A stretch of 64,000 bases of DNA, taken from Shigella phage ESh17. The notes under the pieces were generated by a model, which did no database searches, was not told the DNA's origin, and was given only the letters and a program-made list of their open reading frames with translations. This document shows positions 13,510 through 58,262 of this stretch, piece after piece. The position numbers and the translations under genes were made by a program. The stretch lies in sequence record ON528727; one strand, given 5' to 3'. The first letter of the stretch is position 1. The number at the start of each line of letters is the position of its first letter.

Positions 13510-15075
13510 TTAGATACCTTTAACATATACACGGCGGAAGTAAGCGTTTTTACCAAGGCTATTCAGAATAGAAGGCATACCGCTTTGGATGCGAGAAGCC
13601 GGAGCCTGAGCAGCGGATTCTGCAAATGGGTTGATACCGATACCGTAACGAGTTTTGAATCCCATTACTGGTTGGAAGTTCTTCGGATCGGAACCACGCA
13701 GCGGAGTCAGCGCTACATATGGAGCGTAGTAAATACCAGCATCCATTTCGTTCGGACCTTTATAACCTACAGTGAAATAATCCTGTTTAGCATACTGGTC
13801 GATATATACGCGGTATTTACCACCCAGAACACCAGCAAATACTGACTTGGTAGTATCAGTGTTAAAGCCGGTAGCCAGACCCTGTGCAGCATAAGAAATG
13901 CCGGTATCAACTGAAGCCAGAACGTTAACTACGTTACGGGAAGCGATAATGAAGTTACCTTCACCACGACCGGTCTGACGAGCAATTTCAACTGCTTCTT
14001 TGTCAATCTGGAACAACAGAGCTTTAAAGGATTCACCCGCCCAGCGAGCACCACGAATATCAATCGGATCCTGGAAGTCAAATACACCAGCTTTAGAACC
14101 CGGAGTCAGGGTCATACCAGATTTACCAACCTGTGCGGAGTAGTTAATCCAATCAACAACTTCACGGTTGATTTCTAGCATGATTTCGGTAGCCAGAATA
14201 CCAGACAGTTCAGCATCAGCATCCATACCGTGAACAGCGCGGAGGTCTTGTGCTAATTCGATAGAGTAAGCAGCTTTCAGCTGGCGAGATTTAGCTTCGA
14301 TAACTTGTTTATCGATACGGAAGCCCATTTCATTCCATGGGTTATCGGTAGAACCATTGAAACCTTCCTGAAGTTCAGCGATAGAAGTAGCCATGCCTTC
14401 AGCGATTTCTACCAGTACACCAGCTTCCATTTGTTTCTTAACTTCGGCATCTAATTTAGCAGCATCAGTCGCACCAGCATCAATTGTTACTACAGCGGAA
14501 GCTTGCAGATATACAGTGCCAGTTTCCTGGAAGAAGTGAGAATAGATGTCACCTACAACGGTTTGTGTGCTAGCAGCCAGAGCTGGGAATTTCTTAGCAG
14601 CACCCTGACCAGAGAACATTGCATCTGGACCATACATTGGGTGGAATGCTTCTTTAGCACCGGCAGCCACTGGGTCTTTACCATATACTGCGCGCAGTGC
14701 GAATACCTGGCCAGTCGGGCTGTTCATCGGCTGAACACCACAAATATCGAAAGCAATCAGGTTAGGAATAGCACGACGTACCATACCCATAACAGCTGGG
14801 CCAATCTGGGTTACTGCGCCAGAAGTCTGACCTGCAGCGATGTTAGTAGCATTGTAACCATGGTCACCGCCGATTTCAGCTTCTGTTAAGAAAGAACCAA
14901 ATGCCTGAGCAATTTTTTCGTCTTTATATTCCGGAGCTGTCTGGAAATCTTTTTCCTGGTTTTCAAAGATTTTAGCGATAATCGCTTGTTTGCTATTAGC
15001 AATTTCCGGTAAACCTTCACCTTCCAGTAATGGCTTCCATTTGTTCAAAAGTTCAGCTTTAGTTTTGATAGTCAT
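13510..15075 (-). CDS. 23: Major capsid protein gp23
   Basis: 521 aa, T4 gp23 size and sequence character; synteny 22-23-24. Confidence 0.92.
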   Translation of the reverse strand: MTIKTKAELLNKWKPLLEGEGLPEIANSKQAIIAKIFENQEKDFQTAPEYKDEKIAQAFGSFLTEAEIGGDHGYNATNIAAGQTSGAVTQIGPAVMGMVRRAIPNLIAFDICGVQPMNSPTGQVFALRAVYGKDPVAAGAKEAFHPMYGPDAMFSGQGAAKKFPALAASTQTVVGDIYSHFFQETGTVYLQASAVVTIDAGATDAAKLDAEVKKQMEAGVLVEIAEGMATSIAELQEGFNGSTDNPWNEMGFRIDKQVIEAKSRQLKAAYSIELAQDLRAVHGMDADAELSGILATEIMLEINREVVDWINYSAQVGKSGMTLTPGSKAGVFDFQDPIDIRGARWAGESFKALLFQIDKEAVEIARQTGRGEGNFIIASRNVVNVLASVDTGISYAAQGLATGFNTDTTKSVFAGVLGGKYRVYIDQYAKQDYFTVGYKGPNEMDAGIYYAPYVALTPLRGSDPKNFQPVMGFKTRYGIGINPFAESAAQAPASRIQSGMPSILNSLGKNAYFRRVYVKGI

Positions 15076-47857: not shown

Positions 47858-47930
47858 TGGGAATTAGCCAAGTTGGTAAGGCACTGGATTTTGATTCCAG
47901 GATGCAAAGGTTCGAGTCCTTTATTCCCAG
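47858..47930 (+). tRNA. tRNA-Gln (anticodon UUG)
   Basis: Cloverleaf by hand: acceptor TGGGAAT/ATTCCCA, anticodon loop TTTTGAT, T-arm GGTTCGAGTCC. Confidence 0.8.
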
Positions 47931-47931
47931 C

Positions 47932-48018
47932 GCGAGAATGGTCAAATTGGTAAAGGCACAGCACTTAAAATGCTGCGGAATGATTTCCTTGTGGGTTCGA
48001 GTCCCACTTCTCGCACCA
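47932..48018 (+). tRNA. tRNA-Leu (anticodon UAA), class II with long variable arm, encoded CCA
   Basis: Acceptor GCGAGAA/TTCTCGC, anticodon loop CTTAAAA, T-arm GGTTCGAGTCC. Confidence 0.8.
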
Positions 48019-48023
48019 AATTT

Positions 48024-48097
<74 letters not shown>

Positions 48098-48107
48098 ATT
48101 TAATTTA

Positions 48108-48181
48108 CTCCGTGTAGCTCAGTTTGGTAGAGCGCCTGATTTGGGATCAGGAGGTCCAAGGTTCAAATCCTTGTATGGAGA
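48108..48181 (+). tRNA. tRNA-Pro (anticodon UGG)
   Basis: D-arm TAGCTCAGTTTGGTAGAGC, anticodon loop TTTGGGA, T-arm GGTTCAAATCC; acceptor with two G-U pairs. Confidence 0.7.
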
Positions 48182-48183
48182 CT

Positions 48184-48273
48184 GGAGGCGTGGCAGAGTG
48201 GTTTAATGCACCGGTCTTGAAAACCGGCAGTCGCTCCGGCGACTCATAGGTTCAAATCCTATCGCCTCCGCCA
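48184..48273 (+). tRNA. tRNA-Ser (anticodon UGA), class II
   Basis: Acceptor GGAGGCG/CGCCTCC, anticodon loop CTTGAAA, long variable arm, T-arm GGTTCAAATCC. Confidence 0.8.
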
Positions 48274-48279
48274 GTTTTT

Positions 48280-48355
48280 GCTGATTTAGCTCAGTAGGTA
48301 GAGCAACTCACTTGTAATGAGAAGGTCGGCGGTTCGATTCCGTCAATCAGCACCA
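48280..48355 (+). tRNA. tRNA-Thr (anticodon UGU)
   Basis: Acceptor GCTGATT/AATCAGC, anticodon loop CTTGTAA, T-arm GGTTCGATTCC. Confidence 0.8.
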
Positions 48356-48356
48356 A

Positions 48357-48431
48357 GGCCCTGTAGCTGGAAGGTTCAAGCAAGCGACTCATAATCGCCA
48401 GATGGTGGTTCAATTCCACCCAGGGCCACCA
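48357..48431 (+). tRNA. tRNA-Ile (anticodon CAU, presumably lysidine-modified; could be read as Met)
   Basis: Acceptor GGCCCTG/CAGGGCC, anticodon loop CTCATAA, T-arm GGTTCAATTCC. Confidence 0.65.
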
Positions 48432-48443
48432 AATTATGAATTA

Positions 48444-48530
48444 GGGGAGTTATCCCGTAGAGGTAGCGGTGTGGACTGTAAATCCATTGTCATTGCGACT
48501 CGGGTGGTTCGACTCCATCACTCCCCACCA
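48444..48530 (+). tRNA. tRNA-Tyr (anticodon GUA), class II
   Basis: Acceptor GGGGAGT/ACTCCCC, anticodon loop CTGTAAA, long variable arm, T-arm GGTTCGACTCC. Confidence 0.6.
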
Positions 48531-48534
48531 ATTT

Positions 48535-48609
48535 GGATGTGTAGCTCAGTGGTAGAGCAGTTGACTGTTAATCAATTGGTCCATGGTTCGAATCCATGCA
48601 TGTCCGCCA
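48535..48609 (+). tRNA. tRNA-Asn (anticodon GUU)
   Basis: D-arm TAGCTCAGTGGTAGAGC, anticodon loop CTGTTAA, T-arm GGTTCGAATCC. Confidence 0.7.
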
Positions 48610-48723
48610 AATTTGTGACAACTGTCACATTAATATCTACTTGACGCGATTATAAGGGTTGAACTGATCACTCTTCTCTTAATTTCGTGTGAAGACATCT
48701 TGATTGTTGGAGTAGGTATTAAT

Positions 48724-48799
48724 GTGGCCGTAGTTCAGTTGGTAGAACTCGAGATTGTGATTCTCGTAGTCATGGGTTCGACTCCCATCGGTCACCCCA
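48724..48799 (+). tRNA. tRNA-His (anticodon GUG)
   Basis: D-arm TAGTTCAGTTGGTAGAAC, anticodon loop TTGTGAT, T-arm GGTTCGACTCC, discriminator C; no encoded G-1. Confidence 0.65.
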
Positions 48800-48803
48800 A
48801 TTA

Positions 48804-48879
48804 CGGGGCATAGCTCAGAAGGAAGAGCAAGGACCTTCTAAGTCCTAGGTCGTAGGTTCGATCCCTACTGCCTCGACCA
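48804..48879 (+). tRNA. tRNA-Arg (anticodon UCU)
   Basis: Acceptor CGGGGCA/TGCCTCG, anticodon loop CTTCTAA, T-arm GGTTCGATCCC. Confidence 0.8.
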
Positions 48880-54567: not shown

Positions 54568-55041
54568 ATGAAAACATATCAAGAATTTATTACTGAAGCA
54601 GCTATTAATTCTCAAATTATTGCTGAATCTTTTACTGATCTTTTGAAATTTAAAAAAGGTCAAAAAATCACTGCTGTATTGGATGATGGTACAGAAGTTG
54701 AGATGGATGTACAGGGATATAATTATGCAGTAGATGGAAAACTGTATAATAAATCTCATGCTAAATTTGATTCATTTGACGACTTTGTTAATACAGTTGA
54801 AGATGAAAAAACTCGTAGATCCATTGCAACTGGCGACGCTAAGGTTCTTATGGCACATGGCCATGAACGCATCCGCGCTAAACAGAATAAAATGGGCGAA
54901 GATAATTTTGCATTAGTTGGTTATCAATCTGGTAAACAAACTTATGGCTATCAACGTACTGCTACCATGTATAACAAAAATGGTAAAATTGCCTTTGTGA
55001 ATAGTAAAGGTTCTATTCAGTACGTTAAATCGTTCAAATAA
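54568..55041 (+). CDS. Internal (capsid-injected) protein, IPIII/IPII-like
   Basis: 157 aa; N-terminus MKTYQEFITEAAINSQIIAE (CTS with I-T-E and I-A-E motifs); early promoter upstream; adjacent to e as ipIII in T4. Confidence 0.65.
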   Translation: MKTYQEFITEAAINSQIIAESFTDLLKFKKGQKITAVLDDGTEVEMDVQGYNYAVDGKLYNKSHAKFDSFDDFVNTVEDEKTRRSIATGDAKVLMAHGHERIRAKQNKMGEDNFALVGYQSGKQTYGYQRTATMYNKNGKIAFVNSKGSIQYVKSFK

Positions 55042-55194
55042 GCAAATAAGAAATATGGGAACAAGCTGGACCTCATGATTCTGTGAGGGATTCCCGCCAA
55101 CCTGTAATAAGGTCGAGCCCAAGTGCGGTAATGGGTAAATACAGAAATGGACAATTCATGCGCCATGGAATGGCCCAAATTTAGAGAGAATAAA

Positions 55195-55734
55195 ATGAGA
55201 ACATTTTTAACTGGTCCTTATCTATCCCTGATGAATGCTTTTACACACCATTCTGATGCTAGAGTAGAAGAAATTTGTAAAAACGATTATATCCCACCAT
55301 TTGAAGAATTACTTAAACAGTATTGCACACTTCGACTAGATGGTGGACGTCAATCCGGTAAATCAATTGCTGTGACTAACTTTGCTGCTAATTGGCTGTA
55401 TGATGGCGGAACAGTTATTGTTCTTTCTAATACTTCAGCTTACGCTAAAATTTCTGCAAATAACATCAAAAAGGAATTTTCGCGTTATTCTAATGATGAT
55501 ATACGTTTTCGTTTATTTACTGATTCTGTGCGCAGTTTTATTGGTAATAAAGGAAGTAAGTTCAGAGGTTTATCGCTTTCGCGAATTTTGTATATAATTG
55601 ATGAGCCTGTCAAATCTCCTGATATGGATAAGATTTATAGCGTCCATATTGACACTGTACACTACTGCTGCAATAGTAAATGTTGCATTGGTGGTATTAC
55701 TCGTCCACAGTTTTTCGTAATCGGAATGCAATGA
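55195..55734 (+). CDS. Small P-loop NTPase of unknown function
   Basis: Track 55147..55734; ATG at 55195 gives 179 aa; Walker A GGRQSGKS and Walker B ILYIIDE; Cys-rich C-terminus. Confidence 0.55.
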   Translation: MRTFLTGPYLSLMNAFTHHSDARVEEICKNDYIPPFEELLKQYCTLRLDGGRQSGKSIAVTNFAANWLYDGGTVIVLSNTSAYAKISANNIKKEFSRYSNDDIRFRLFTDSVRSFIGNKGSKFRGLSLSRILYIIDEPVKSPDMDKIYSVHIDTVHYCCNSKCCIGGITRPQFFVIGMQ

Positions 55735-56060
55735 TGACAGACACTCAGCTTTTCGAATATCTTTATTTTTCGCCAAAAACTATTAAAAATAAATTGGTGA
55801 ATCATTTTGAAATTTTAGCAAATAATAACATTTTGAGCGAATTTTATCCCAAGCAATACAAATTACAAAAAGGCGTATTCAAAGGATGCAGAGTTTTGTG
55901 TACTGCTCCTAATGCACGGCTAATGAATAAAATTCCATATTTTACCATGGAATTTATTGATGGGCCTTTTAAAGGACTAATCACCCAAAGTTTAATGGCA
56001 TATGATTCTGAGCCATTTTTAATTAAAGAACAATCTTGGATAAATTTATTTTCTAATTGA
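55731..56060 (+). CDS. Hypothetical protein
   Basis: ATGA overlap with previous gene; 109 aa. Confidence 0.55.
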
Positions 56061-56067
56061 GGTTTAT

Positions 56068-56430
56068 ATGAAAGCATATCAAATTCTTGAAGGCACACAT
56101 AAAGGTACTATTTATTTTGAAGATGGTATTCAAGCACGAATTATTGTTTCTAAAACCTTTAAAGAGGACTCTTTTGTAGACCCAGAAATTTTCTACGGTT
56201 TGCACACCCGTGAAATTGAAATTGAATCACAGCCTACAGTTAAAATTGAAGGTGGTCAACACCTGAACGTAAACGTTCTGCGTCGTGAAACTCTGGAAGA
56301 TGCAGTTAAGCATCCGGAAAAATATCCGCAGCTGACCATCCGTGTATCCGGATATGCAGTTCGCTTTAACTCTCTGACTCCGGAACAGCAGCGCGACGTT
56401 ATCGCTCGTACCTTTACTGAGAGTTTGTAA
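56068..56430 (+). CDS. Autonomous glycyl radical cofactor (GrcA/YfiD-like)
   Basis: 120 aa; C-terminal about 60 aa carry the glycyl-radical motif RVSGYAV and match the GrcA C-terminus as I recall it; 3' half has host-like codons. Confidence 0.8.
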
Positions 56431-56651
56431 TGGCAAAGATAATTATTGAAGGTTCTAAAGATGTGCTAAATGCTTTCGCCGAGTGGTTTAGTAATTCAGG
56501 CGAACAGCAATTTAACGAAGCCTGGAATATGGGTGATATTGATGGAATTTATCCTACGACAGAAATTTCTGTTCAAGGATATGGCATTCATGAACCTATT
56601 CGTTTAGTTGAATATGATTTATGTACTGGTGAGGAAGTCAAATATGATTGA
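56430..56651 (+). CDS. Hypothetical small protein
   Basis: 73 aa, overlapping stop/start with GrcA-like gene. Confidence 0.55.
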   Translation: MAKIIIEGSKDVLNAFAEWFSNSGEQQFNEAWNMGDIDGIYPTTEISVQGYGIHEPIRLVEYDLCTGEEVKYD

Positions 56652-56910
56652 AGACATTAAAGGTTATAAGCCGCATACTGAAGAGAAAATCGGTAAAGTG
56701 AATGCTATCAAAGACGCTGAAGTTCGTTTAGGACTTATCTTTGATGCTTTATACGATGAATTTTGGGAAGCATTTGATAGCTGTGAAGATGATGAACTCG
56801 CGAAGAATTACGCCGAAAGCCTCGATCAGTTAACTATTGCTAAAACGAAACTCAAAGAAGCAAGTATGTGGGCTTGCCGTGCTGTGTTCCAACCAGAGGA
56901 AAAATACTAA
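56644..56910 (+). CDS. Hypothetical small acidic protein (vs.4 position; possible Acb2-like nucleotide sponge)
   Basis: 88 aa from ATG 56644 (track 56608); assignment by synteny and size only. Confidence 0.45.
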
Positions 56911-57188
56911 TGGCTCAATTAAGTGCAGGGTTTGGTTATGAGTATTATACTGCACCTCGTCGTGTATCTGCCGCTCCTAAGAAAATTCAAAGTCTTGATG
57001 ACTTTCAGGAAGTAGTCCGTAAAGCTTTTCAGGACTATGCACGTTATCTTAAAGAAGATTCACAGGACTGTCTCGAAGAAGATGAAATTGCTTACTATGA
57101 GCAGCGTCTTGAACAGCTTAAAAACTTACGTGAGGTTCGTGCAGAAGTTTCAAAGTCTATGAATAAATTGATTAGATTTAAAGAATAA
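56910..57188 (+). CDS. Hypothetical protein
   Basis: 92 aa from ATG 56910 (track 56868), overlaps previous stop. Confidence 0.55.
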
Positions 57189-57190
57189 CT

Positions 57191-57220
57191 GTTTACTTTT
57201 CCTCTTGACTGTGGTATAAT
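57191..57220 (+). promoter_or_regulatory. T4-type early promoter for regB
   Basis: GTTTAC 57191-57196, TGgTATAAT -10 57215-57220. Confidence 0.65.
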
Positions 57221-57247
57221 TTTTCTATCAGTTAAGAGGAGAATAAC

Positions 57248-57709
57248 ATGACTATCAACACAGAAGTTTTTATCCGTCGAAATAAGCTTCGTCGTCATTT
57301 TGAGTCGGAGTTTCGTCAAATTAACAATGAGATTCGTGAGGCATCAAAAGCAGCAGGGGTCTCATCGTTTCATCTAAAATATTCTCAGCATCTTCTTGAT
57401 CGTGCAATTCAACGGGAGATTGATGAGACATATGTTTTTGAATTATTCCATAAAATAAAAGACCATGTTTTAGAAGTTAATGAATTCCTGAGTATGCCTC
57501 CGCGTCCTGACATTGACGAGGATTTTATTGATGGGGTTGAATATCGTCCTGGACGTTTAGAAATCACAGATGGAAATCTTTGGCTTGGGTTTACAGTTTG
57601 TAAACCTAATGCGAAGTTCAAAGACCCGTCGCTTCAATGCAGGATGGCAATTATTAACAGTCGTCGTTTACCAGGAAAGGCTTCTAAAGCAGTAATTAAA
57701 ACTCAATGA
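57248..57709 (+). CDS. regB: RegB site-specific endoribonuclease
   Basis: 153 aa starting MTINTEVFIRRNKLRRHF, T4 RegB size and N-terminus as I recall it; own early promoter. Confidence 0.75.
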   Translation: MTINTEVFIRRNKLRRHFESEFRQINNEIREASKAAGVSSFHLKYSQHLLDRAIQREIDETYVFELFHKIKDHVLEVNEFLSMPPRPDIDEDFIDGVEYRPGRLEITDGNLWLGFTVCKPNAKFKDPSLQCRMAIINSRRLPGKASKAVIKTQ

Positions 57710-57716
57710 GGTAAGC

Positions 57717-58262
57717 ATGAGAAAAGCACTACTCGCTGGTCTATTGGCCATTTCAATGATGGCACATAGCTCCGAGCATACTTTCAGTAATGTCCAACTC
57801 GATAACATGCGTTACGCGTATCAATTCGGGGAACAGTTTTCTAAGGATGGAAAATATAAAACACACAAAAATATCCACAAGAGCGGATTAGGTCATATAA
57901 TGGCTGCTATTTTATGGCAAGAAAGCTCTGGCGGAGTTAATTTAAAATCTAAACCAAAGCATCACGCCTACGGAATGTTCCAAAATTATTTGCCTACTAT
58001 GCGAGCAAGAGTTAAGGAACTTGGTTATAATATGACCGATGCTGAAATAAAAAGAATGTTGAATAAACGATCCAATTCAGCTTCCTGGGCGTACATTGAA
58101 CTTTCTTATTGGTTAAATATACATAAGGGCGATATAAGAAAAGCAATATCCTCTTATAATTCGGGATGGAATGTTAAAGCAGGTTCTAAATATGCTTCTG
58201 AAGTCCTAGAAAAGGCTAATTACCTTAAAAATAATAAACTTTTGGAAATAGTAAATGACTAA
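57717..58262 (+). CDS. Secreted protein with lytic-transglycosylase-like motif (vs.1 position)
   Basis: 181 aa; signal peptide MRKALLAGLLAISMMAHS; ESSGG...YGMFQ resembles SLT-domain catalytic motif. Confidence 0.5.
   Translation: MRKALLAGLLAISMMAHSSEHTFSNVQLDNMRYAYQFGEQFSKDGKYKTHKNIHKSGLGHIMAAILWQESSGGVNLKSKPKHHAYGMFQNYLPTMRARVKELGYNMTDAEIKRMLNKRSNSASWAYIELSYWLNIHKGDIRKAISSYNSGWNVKAGSKYASEVLEKANYLKNNKLLEIVND

Follow-up and report, generated by a model that had tools for sequence, protein, structure and literature searches.

Oxygen cleaves pyruvate formate-lyase (PFL), and the T4 protein Y06I, like Escherichia coli YfiD/GrcA, is an autonomous glycyl radical cofactor that restores the cleaved enzyme (Wagner 2001, as described in PMC8683613). 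Two NCBIfam families of 78-80 aa, GrcA2 and GrcA3 (NF008341 and NF038360), consist of the glycyl-radical C-terminal domain without an N-terminal half. For the cyanophage genes psbA and psbD, intragenic recombination between host and phage, including T4-like phage, has been described, which leaves mosaic genes with host-like patches (PMC1484495).

Here we analyse a stretch of 64,000 nucleotides from Shigella phage ESh17 (sequence record ON528727; hereafter the window) and its gene vs.6, the features of which are compiled in Table 1. In our assessment it is very probable that vs.6 of T4-like phages encodes a spare radical domain and is an old grcA homologue whose 3' tract has been overwritten by host grcA, seemingly repeatedly. 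The T4 gene lies, like the window gene, between vs.7 and vs.5, encodes 120 aa and carries the same host-derived tract, so that the mosaic is not special to ESh17; the two differ by two residue changes in the variable stretch just 5' of the patch (T47A and S54P) and by the patch haplotype, which is GTA/GGA/GAG in the window and GTT/GGT/GAA in T4. E. coli GrcA (YfiD; PDB 6OWR) is a full-length homologue that has its C-terminal 61 residues and the RVSGYA motif in common with vs.6. The N-terminal half of vs.6, in contrast, is only 27-35% identical to that of E. coli GrcA and 7 residues shorter, and the phage gene sits in an early-gene cluster, whereas E. coli grcA adjoins ung. GrcA2 and GrcA3 match vs.6 in the C-terminal domain, but vs.6 retains a diverged N-terminal half. 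With the psbA-type pattern, vs.6 shares a discrete host-identical tract with diverged phage sequence to its left and right in a single open reading frame, a tract composition that matches the host and not the phage, and independent events in different phage-host pairs. It differs from psbA and psbD in gene, host group and habitat, the vs.6 phages being enterobacterial T-even phages, and in that its 171-nt tract has fixed limits, given by the extent of homology, and is near-identical to the current host species.

Table 1. Features of the vs.6 locus in the window
Feature	Position	Strand	Description and basis
Shine-Dalgarno-like GAGG	56059..56062	+	5 nt before the vs.6 ATG; overlaps the vs.7 stop TGA (56058-56060); direct sequence reading
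vs.6 (T4 Y06I) coding sequence	56068..56430	+	120 aa; ORF list, AR1 and T4 annotation as vs.6, Pfam PF01228, PDB 6OWR
Phage-native 5' half	56068..56245	+	AT-rich; anciently diverged homologue of the GrcA N-terminal half
Host-derived tract, essentially E. coli grcA	56246..56418 (codon frame 56248-56418, GAA GGT ... TTT ACT)	+	170/171 identical to E. coli FDAARGOS_497
Synonymous site Val68 GTA/GTT	56271	+	A in the window, as in FDAARGOS_497; T in T4 and most phages, as in E. coli B, CFSAN051542 and DH5a
Synonymous site Arg73 CGT/CGC	56286	+	T in the window and T4; C in AR1, L005 and RB69, as in E. coli DH5a (K-12)
RVSGYA glycyl-radical motif	56341..56358	+	Residues 92-97; translation and codon display
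Radical glycine Gly95	56350-56352	+	Codon GGA, GGT in E. coli; sole mismatch to E. coli inside the tract
Phage-native tail GAG AGT TTG TAA	56419..56430	+	Stop overlaps the vs.5 ATG (vs.5 = 56430-56651)

Identity and neighbourhood of vs.6

The window is a segment of a Tequatrovirus (T4-like) genome, with positions 55000-57800 being 99.2% identical to Shigella phage SHBML-50-1 and 98.1% identical to AR1. According to the AR1 and T4 annotations, the plus-strand genes follow in the order e (lysozyme), an internal protein gene, vs.8, vs.7, vs.6, vs.5, vs.4, vs.3, regB and vs.1. The vs.6 product is a stand-alone small protein (about 14 kDa), encoded with its own Shine-Dalgarno sequence and stop codon; a scan for promoters and terminators around the gene returned sites no more frequently than in shuffled sequence. 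An earlier reading made from the letters alone (the sequence-only reading) had pointed to a T4 homologue, and the window gene is indeed the orthologue of T4 vs.6, the two products being identical at 118 of 120 residues.

That reading had also called the gene GrcA-like on account of an RVSGYA motif and had stated that the C-terminal ~60 residues match E. coli GrcA. Both statements are borne out: Pfam PF01228 (Gly_radical) scores 67.1 bits on residues 60-101 against a cut-off of 22.2, the GrcA structure 6OWR matches residues 22-120 with E = 9e-42, and residues 60-120 are identical to residues 67-127 of E. coli GrcA at all 61 positions, the open reading frame ending with the 59 residues quoted earlier. 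Homology to GrcA extends along the whole length of the protein, N-terminal half included, as judged by the 6OWR match, BLASTP and hhalign. With a Gly_radical domain, a 6OWR match and a homologous N-terminal half, the predicted protein fits the structural definition of GrcA. It stays below the threshold of the NCBIfam GrcA equivalog TIGR04365 (154.8 versus 170 bits) because its N-terminal half has diverged, although RefSeq phage records name proteins of this type GrcA. We infer that the vs.6 product is Y06I, because vs.6 is the only GrcA-like T4 gene that our searches returned.

Several phage records label the protein as pyruvate formate-lyase. A full-length enzyme of this kind was considered and rejected, as TIGR01255 reaches 89 bits against a cut-off of 994 and the protein has no ~760-aa barrel with Cys418/Cys419. 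The PFL match to vs.6 is confined to the last 63-65 positions of PFL, and PDB chains of PFL match at residues 697-759 only.

A tract of host grcA inside a diverged phage gene

From the window alone, the earlier reading had proposed a mosaic gene in which a recently captured host segment, from about 56250 to 56430, has GC-richer codons of enterobacterial style. When vs.6 was compared by BLASTN with 5426 complete E. coli genomes, only query positions 179-363 (56246-56430) aligned, and they hit grcA with 97.8% identity (181/185) in all 5426; the 5' half gave no nucleotide alignment to any of these genomes. In a pairwise alignment to E. coli grcA, 84 of 178 positions are identical to the left of the boundary and 178 of 182 to the right (Fisher p = 7e-31). 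By both comparisons, the gene is a mosaic, its 3' half being of host origin down to the nucleotide sequence.

Within the core tract (56248-56418), a single synonymous mismatch (GGA/GGT at Gly95) separates the phage from the grcA of E. coli FDAARGOS_497, corresponding to a dS of 0.023. Host-like sequence starts with GAA GGT GGT at 56248; the preceding codon, ATT versus GTT in the host, is not host-like, nor are the last three sense codons, GAG AGT TTG versus GAA AGC CTG in E. coli. The left boundary proposed earlier (now 56246-56248) was therefore accurate, but the right one was not, since roughly the last 12 nt of the gene lie outside the host tract. A tail reading GAG AGT CTA is common to Mosigvirus, Slopekvirus and Pseudotevenvirus, among them lineages that lack a recent host patch. 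We regard the vs.6 tail as phage-native because a GAG AGT YTR tail occurs in phage lineages whose 3' halves are far from any host. The idea that GAG AGT was kept as the ribosome-binding site of vs.5 was dropped, since T4 has GAA there. Just 5' of the tract, codon 54 (56227-56229) encodes S in the window, P in T4, Q in AR1, T in the phage L005 and H in RB69; it lies among the variable codons 46-55 of phages that are otherwise near-identical, and its variability may reflect diversifying selection or junction-associated change.

The composition of the gene changes at the same place. GC content rises from 0.33 in the 5' half (GC3 0.20) to 0.497 in 56248-56418 (GC3 0.43), which, against a window mean of 0.360 (sd 0.047), gives the tract a z of 2.9 and puts it in the top 1% of 171-nt windows. 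All Leu codons (5/5) are CTG and all Pro codons (3/3) are CCG, codons that account for 7% of Leu and 14% of Pro in the long open reading frames of the window, and the tract employs CTG, CCG and CGT as E. coli does. The gene is thus neither uniform in composition nor devoid of similarity to host grcA, and the codon shift noticed in the sequence-only reading is real. Within the 64 kb, an equal GC content is reached only in gp23 (the major capsid gene) and in the tRNA cluster. The gp23-like gene (13510-15075, minus strand) contains the only other protein-coding stretches with a GC content of ~0.50 and has no nucleotide match in E. coli. The tRNA cluster (47858-48879) comprises eleven tRNA genes on the plus strand; positions 48441-48595, around tRNA-Tyr, match tRNA-Tyr/tRNA-Thr genes on ~80-111 kb E. 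coli plasmids at 84-91% identity (255 of 5426 genomes, chromosomal hits none), and these plasmids may be phage-plasmids. When the entire 64 kb was compared with E. coli by megablast, the vs.6 tract was the sole chromosomal match.

An older relationship to grcA underlies the tract. The N-terminal halves of vs.6 and GrcA are 35% identical by BLASTP (E = 3e-6), and a profile-profile comparison of phage and host N-terminal halves with hhalign gives a probability of 97.4% (E = 1.4e-11, 62 columns). By these comparisons, vs.6 is best described as a full-length homologue of grcA that is old and diverged and that has had an internal block replaced by host sequence. Such an internal replacement, flanked by phage-native sequence on both sides, is the pattern of homologous recombination and not of illegitimate capture of a gene end. 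E. coli grcA has no composition break (GC 0.48 in the N-terminal and 0.49 in the C-terminal half) and its divergence from K. pneumoniae grcA is of similar extent in the two halves (dS 0.84 and 0.65). This uniform composition and even divergence indicate that the transfer went from host to phage.

Age, recurrence and competing explanations

The tract is present in all Tequatrovirus and Mosigvirus sequences examined, and about 640 phage records of these genera contain the 3' half at an identity of at least 95%. In ~153 phage records, the 5' half is only 80-90% identical to that of the window; the counts fit Mosigvirus-like genomes whose 3' half falls in the 95-99% band, as in RB69 (96.8%). Relative to RB69, the 5' half has a dS of 0.45 in the window and 0.39 in T4, and the tract one of 0.073 and 0.024, respectively. 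In a sliding comparison of the window with RB69, identity reaches a maximum of 93-100% in the tract, compared to 67-90% in flanking genes and 67-73% in vs.5. Judged by these divergences, the tract is younger than the genera Tequatrovirus and Mosigvirus. Differences between the window and its close relative L184 are not concentrated in the patch, and such a close pair is uninformative; a metagenome scan with a junction-spanning pattern returned five phage contigs only, too few for population statistics. The 142-kb record PV654520.1, named "Pseudomonas phage vB_PSGBLB0006", carries an E. coli-type vs.6 tract (98.4%) and may be a mislabelled or contaminated Tequatrovirus record.

A GC-rich patch of a different origin (GC3 0.60 in KPV15) was found in ten Jiaodavirus genomes, where it matches K. 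pneumoniae grcA. KPV15 shows 1 mismatch to this gene over about 52 codons, with an identical run of 140 nt, versus 24 mismatches to E. coli grcA over the 171-nt patch, and the best match of the Jiaodavirus tract in a host grcA panel without K. pneumoniae is 88%. The 5' half of the Jiaodavirus gene is about 73% identical to that of the window, and its tract is followed by a distinct phage-native tail of its own. By sequence, then, the Jiaodavirus tract is an event independent of the E. coli-type patch. The nine Jiaodaviruses beyond KPV15 have the same tract with 1-7 scattered synonymous differences from one sampled K. pneumoniae allele, many of them GC to AT, a pattern that resembles the decay of an older patch more than continual renewal; in PSE-D1 the right edge lies two codons further. 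The K. pneumoniae grcA used here was taken from a chromosome filed as a plasmid in PLSDB, where CP125156.1, a 5.37-Mb K. pneumoniae chromosome, is labelled as a plasmid. In LR134122.1 (K. aerogenes), grcA is annotated as truncated because of an extra A in an A run. In L028, the IMG/VR copy of KPV15, the vs.6 frame is broken in the 5' half and an 80-aa C-terminal open reading frame remains, which is either a sequencing error or a pseudogene.

The search for further recent patches was negative in Karamvirus, Pseudotevenvirus, Slopekvirus, T5-like, Aeromonas and jumbo phages, whose 3' halves reach at most about 84% identity to any of 80 host species (only 70-80% for the T5-like, Aeromonas and jumbo-phage homologues). 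Although the 57 residues spanning the patch are unchanged in Pseudotevenvirus, 27 of the 171 nt are not those of E. coli (dS 1.4). Slopekvirus has 32 mismatches to K. pneumoniae grcA, every one of them synonymous, and Karamvirus has 32 to E. coli (dS 1.2, dN 0.05), a few amino-acid changes included. Slopekviruses of Klebsiella (KMI9, L019 and L020) encode the Klebsiella-type LLDAVEHP, and the closely related Pseudotevenviruses (phi5 and L014-L016) the E. coli-type LEDAVKHP, with 3' halves that are more than 30 nt from either host gene. These residue types could be older, decayed conversions or the result of convergence.

Polymorphism shared with the host bears on how often the E. coli-type tract was acquired. 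At positions 56271 and 56286, the four sampled E. coli grcA genes form three haplotypes (GTA-CGT, GTT-CGT and GTT-CGC), and the same three recur in phages: GTA-CGT in the window, GTT-CGT in T4 and most others, and GTT-CGC in AR1, L005 and RB69. As exact 90-mers, the three were found in 19, 324 and 49 phage records, in that order. T4 agrees with E. coli B REL606 and CFSAN051542 over an uninterrupted 178 nt, and AR1 with DH5a over 175 nt. The chance that the phage-variable codons include both E. coli-variable sites with the same bases is of the order of 0.005-0.03, by a rough count in which about ten codons vary in the tracts read. These shared haplotypes point to repeated host-to-phage transfer, short of proof, on the basis of four host alleles, about 15 phage sequences examined over their full length and two synonymous sites that vary in both; phage-phage spread of a few captured alleles, or parallel mutation, might produce them as well. 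Taken with the Klebsiella-type patch, the evidence points to repeated events, with clear cases from only two host groups. Of the recently captured host segment proposed in the sequence-only reading, the host origin and the recent age stand, but a single event looks unlikely in view of the independent Klebsiella-type patch and the shared E. coli polymorphisms.

Tract type does not always follow the host of isolation. Tequatroviruses isolated on Yersinia or Salmonella (fPS-90, PYps14T and BCPSen_003) still have an E. coli-type tract, and a Jiaodavirus from Salmonella and one from K. aerogenes (PSE-D1 and Shinkou) have the K. pneumoniae type. Conversion would thus not be fast relative to host switching, or the isolates would mostly grow on the other host in nature; either way, the tract would reflect the long-term host of the lineage rather than the host of isolation.

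The strongest competitor to repeated overwriting is a single capture from E. coli in one T-even phage, followed by phage-phage recombination across Tequatrovirus and Mosigvirus, with no continuing host exchange and with ordinary mutation as the source of patch variation. T-even phages recombine freely, most of them have the same tail and the same left edge (ATT GAA), one haplotype dominates (324 of ~640 records), and the E. coli type persists in phages isolated on Yersinia or Salmonella, all of which a single capture would explain. It would, however, need parallel mutation, since the two commonest phage-variable sites are the E. coli-variable sites, where the bases and the three haplotypes coincide as well. 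Depending on the phage, it is a different E. coli allele that is matched without interruption over 175-178 nt, and the separate Klebsiella-derived patch means that the process occurred at least twice. We therefore consider a single capture unlikely, though worth keeping in view.

The other explanations carry far less weight than repeated overwriting or a single capture. A transfer in the reverse direction, in which E. coli obtained the 3' half of grcA from a T-even phage, has a precedent in the two-way exchange reported for cyanophage psbA (PMC1484495). We nevertheless hold it to be very improbable: the tract has the GC content and codon usage of the host and stands out within the phage, E. 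coli grcA has an even composition throughout, its tract is as far from K. pneumoniae grcA as the rest of the gene, and all 5426 E. coli genomes carry it. More improbable still is that no transfer took place and that purifying selection and convergence on host-optimal codons made the 3' half of an ancient phage gene identical to the host's. Hosts and many phages have almost the same C-terminal 60 residues, and grcA is a highly expressed host gene, as this account would have it; but other phage genera with the same 57 patch residues differ from the host at 27-32 of 171 nt, synonymously and with dS above 1, the shared codons include the non-optimal CAA, AAG, CAT, TAT and GTA, Klebsiella phages match Klebsiella codons instead, and the identity ends abruptly at both edges. 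The assembly of host reads into a phage contig has no specific point in its favour and a negligible probability, the lowest of all, as more than 600 phage genomes that were sequenced independently, T4, T2 and RB69 among them, have the same in-frame junctions, and phage-native codons lie on both sides of the tract within one open reading frame.

Proposed role, mechanism and significance

By analogy with the near-identical T4 protein, vs.6 would provide a spare glycyl-radical domain for oxygen-damaged PFL, a role that the sequence-only reading had suggested and that has been demonstrated biochemically for Y06I (Wagner 2001, as described in PMC8683613). If it acts as T4 Y06I and E. coli GrcA/YfiD do, the host activase PflA would place the radical on Gly95, and the protein would then replace the C-terminal domain of oxygen-cleaved host PflB, thereby maintaining fermentative production of acetyl-CoA and formate during infection. 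In the literature searched, we found no report of a vs.6 phenotype in infection.

T-even phages degrade host DNA, their homologous recombination is very active, and marker rescue from cytosine-containing plasmids is routine in T4 genetics. The phage lineage took up a full-length grcA long ago, and this copy has diverged since. In the scenario that we favour, constraint at the protein level preserved enough similarity between its 3' half and host grcA to permit homologous recombination. This conserved half would have served as the homology block that permitted a first, rare conversion, in which fragments of host DNA, evident as the source of the tract, replaced the 3' stretch, presumably by natural marker rescue or gene conversion. 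The left limit of the tract would be the end of phage-host similarity and the right limit the end of the gene, beyond whose stop codon the tract would not extend; for lack of flanking homology, a few bases at either edge would tend to stay phage-native. Near-identity after the first conversion would make repeats easy, so that tract and host allele would tend towards concerted evolution.

Neither the gene nor its biochemical role is new, and recurrent host-to-phage conversion is here a new example of a process known from cyanophage psbA. In the accessible literature, we found no description of a nucleotide mosaic or of host-to-phage conversion in a phage grcA; an earlier one is possible in a subscription journal, Wagner 2001 included. 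The overwriting of phage genes by host copies has so far been documented mainly for cyanophage photosynthesis genes, and vs.6 provides a sharply bounded case in which a lytic coliphage has overwritten part of its own gene with the host copy, in independent E. coli and Klebsiella versions. It also calls for caution in annotation and contamination filters, as a perfect host match of 170-190 nt inside a phage genome is real here.

The conversion is directly testable in T4 and E. coli, and the tract could mark the long-term host of T-even isolates. We give even chances to the broader proposition that the vs.6 3' half is in continuing concerted evolution with host grcA, T-even phages repeatedly marker-rescuing the allele of the infected cell in several genera and host species. 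If this is true, the 171-nt tract would record the recent host history of a phage lineage, the phage radical domain would be kept exactly matched to host PflB and PflA, and vs.6 would offer a rare, measurable instance of a strictly lytic phage that is still acquiring sequence from a bacterial chromosome by gene conversion.
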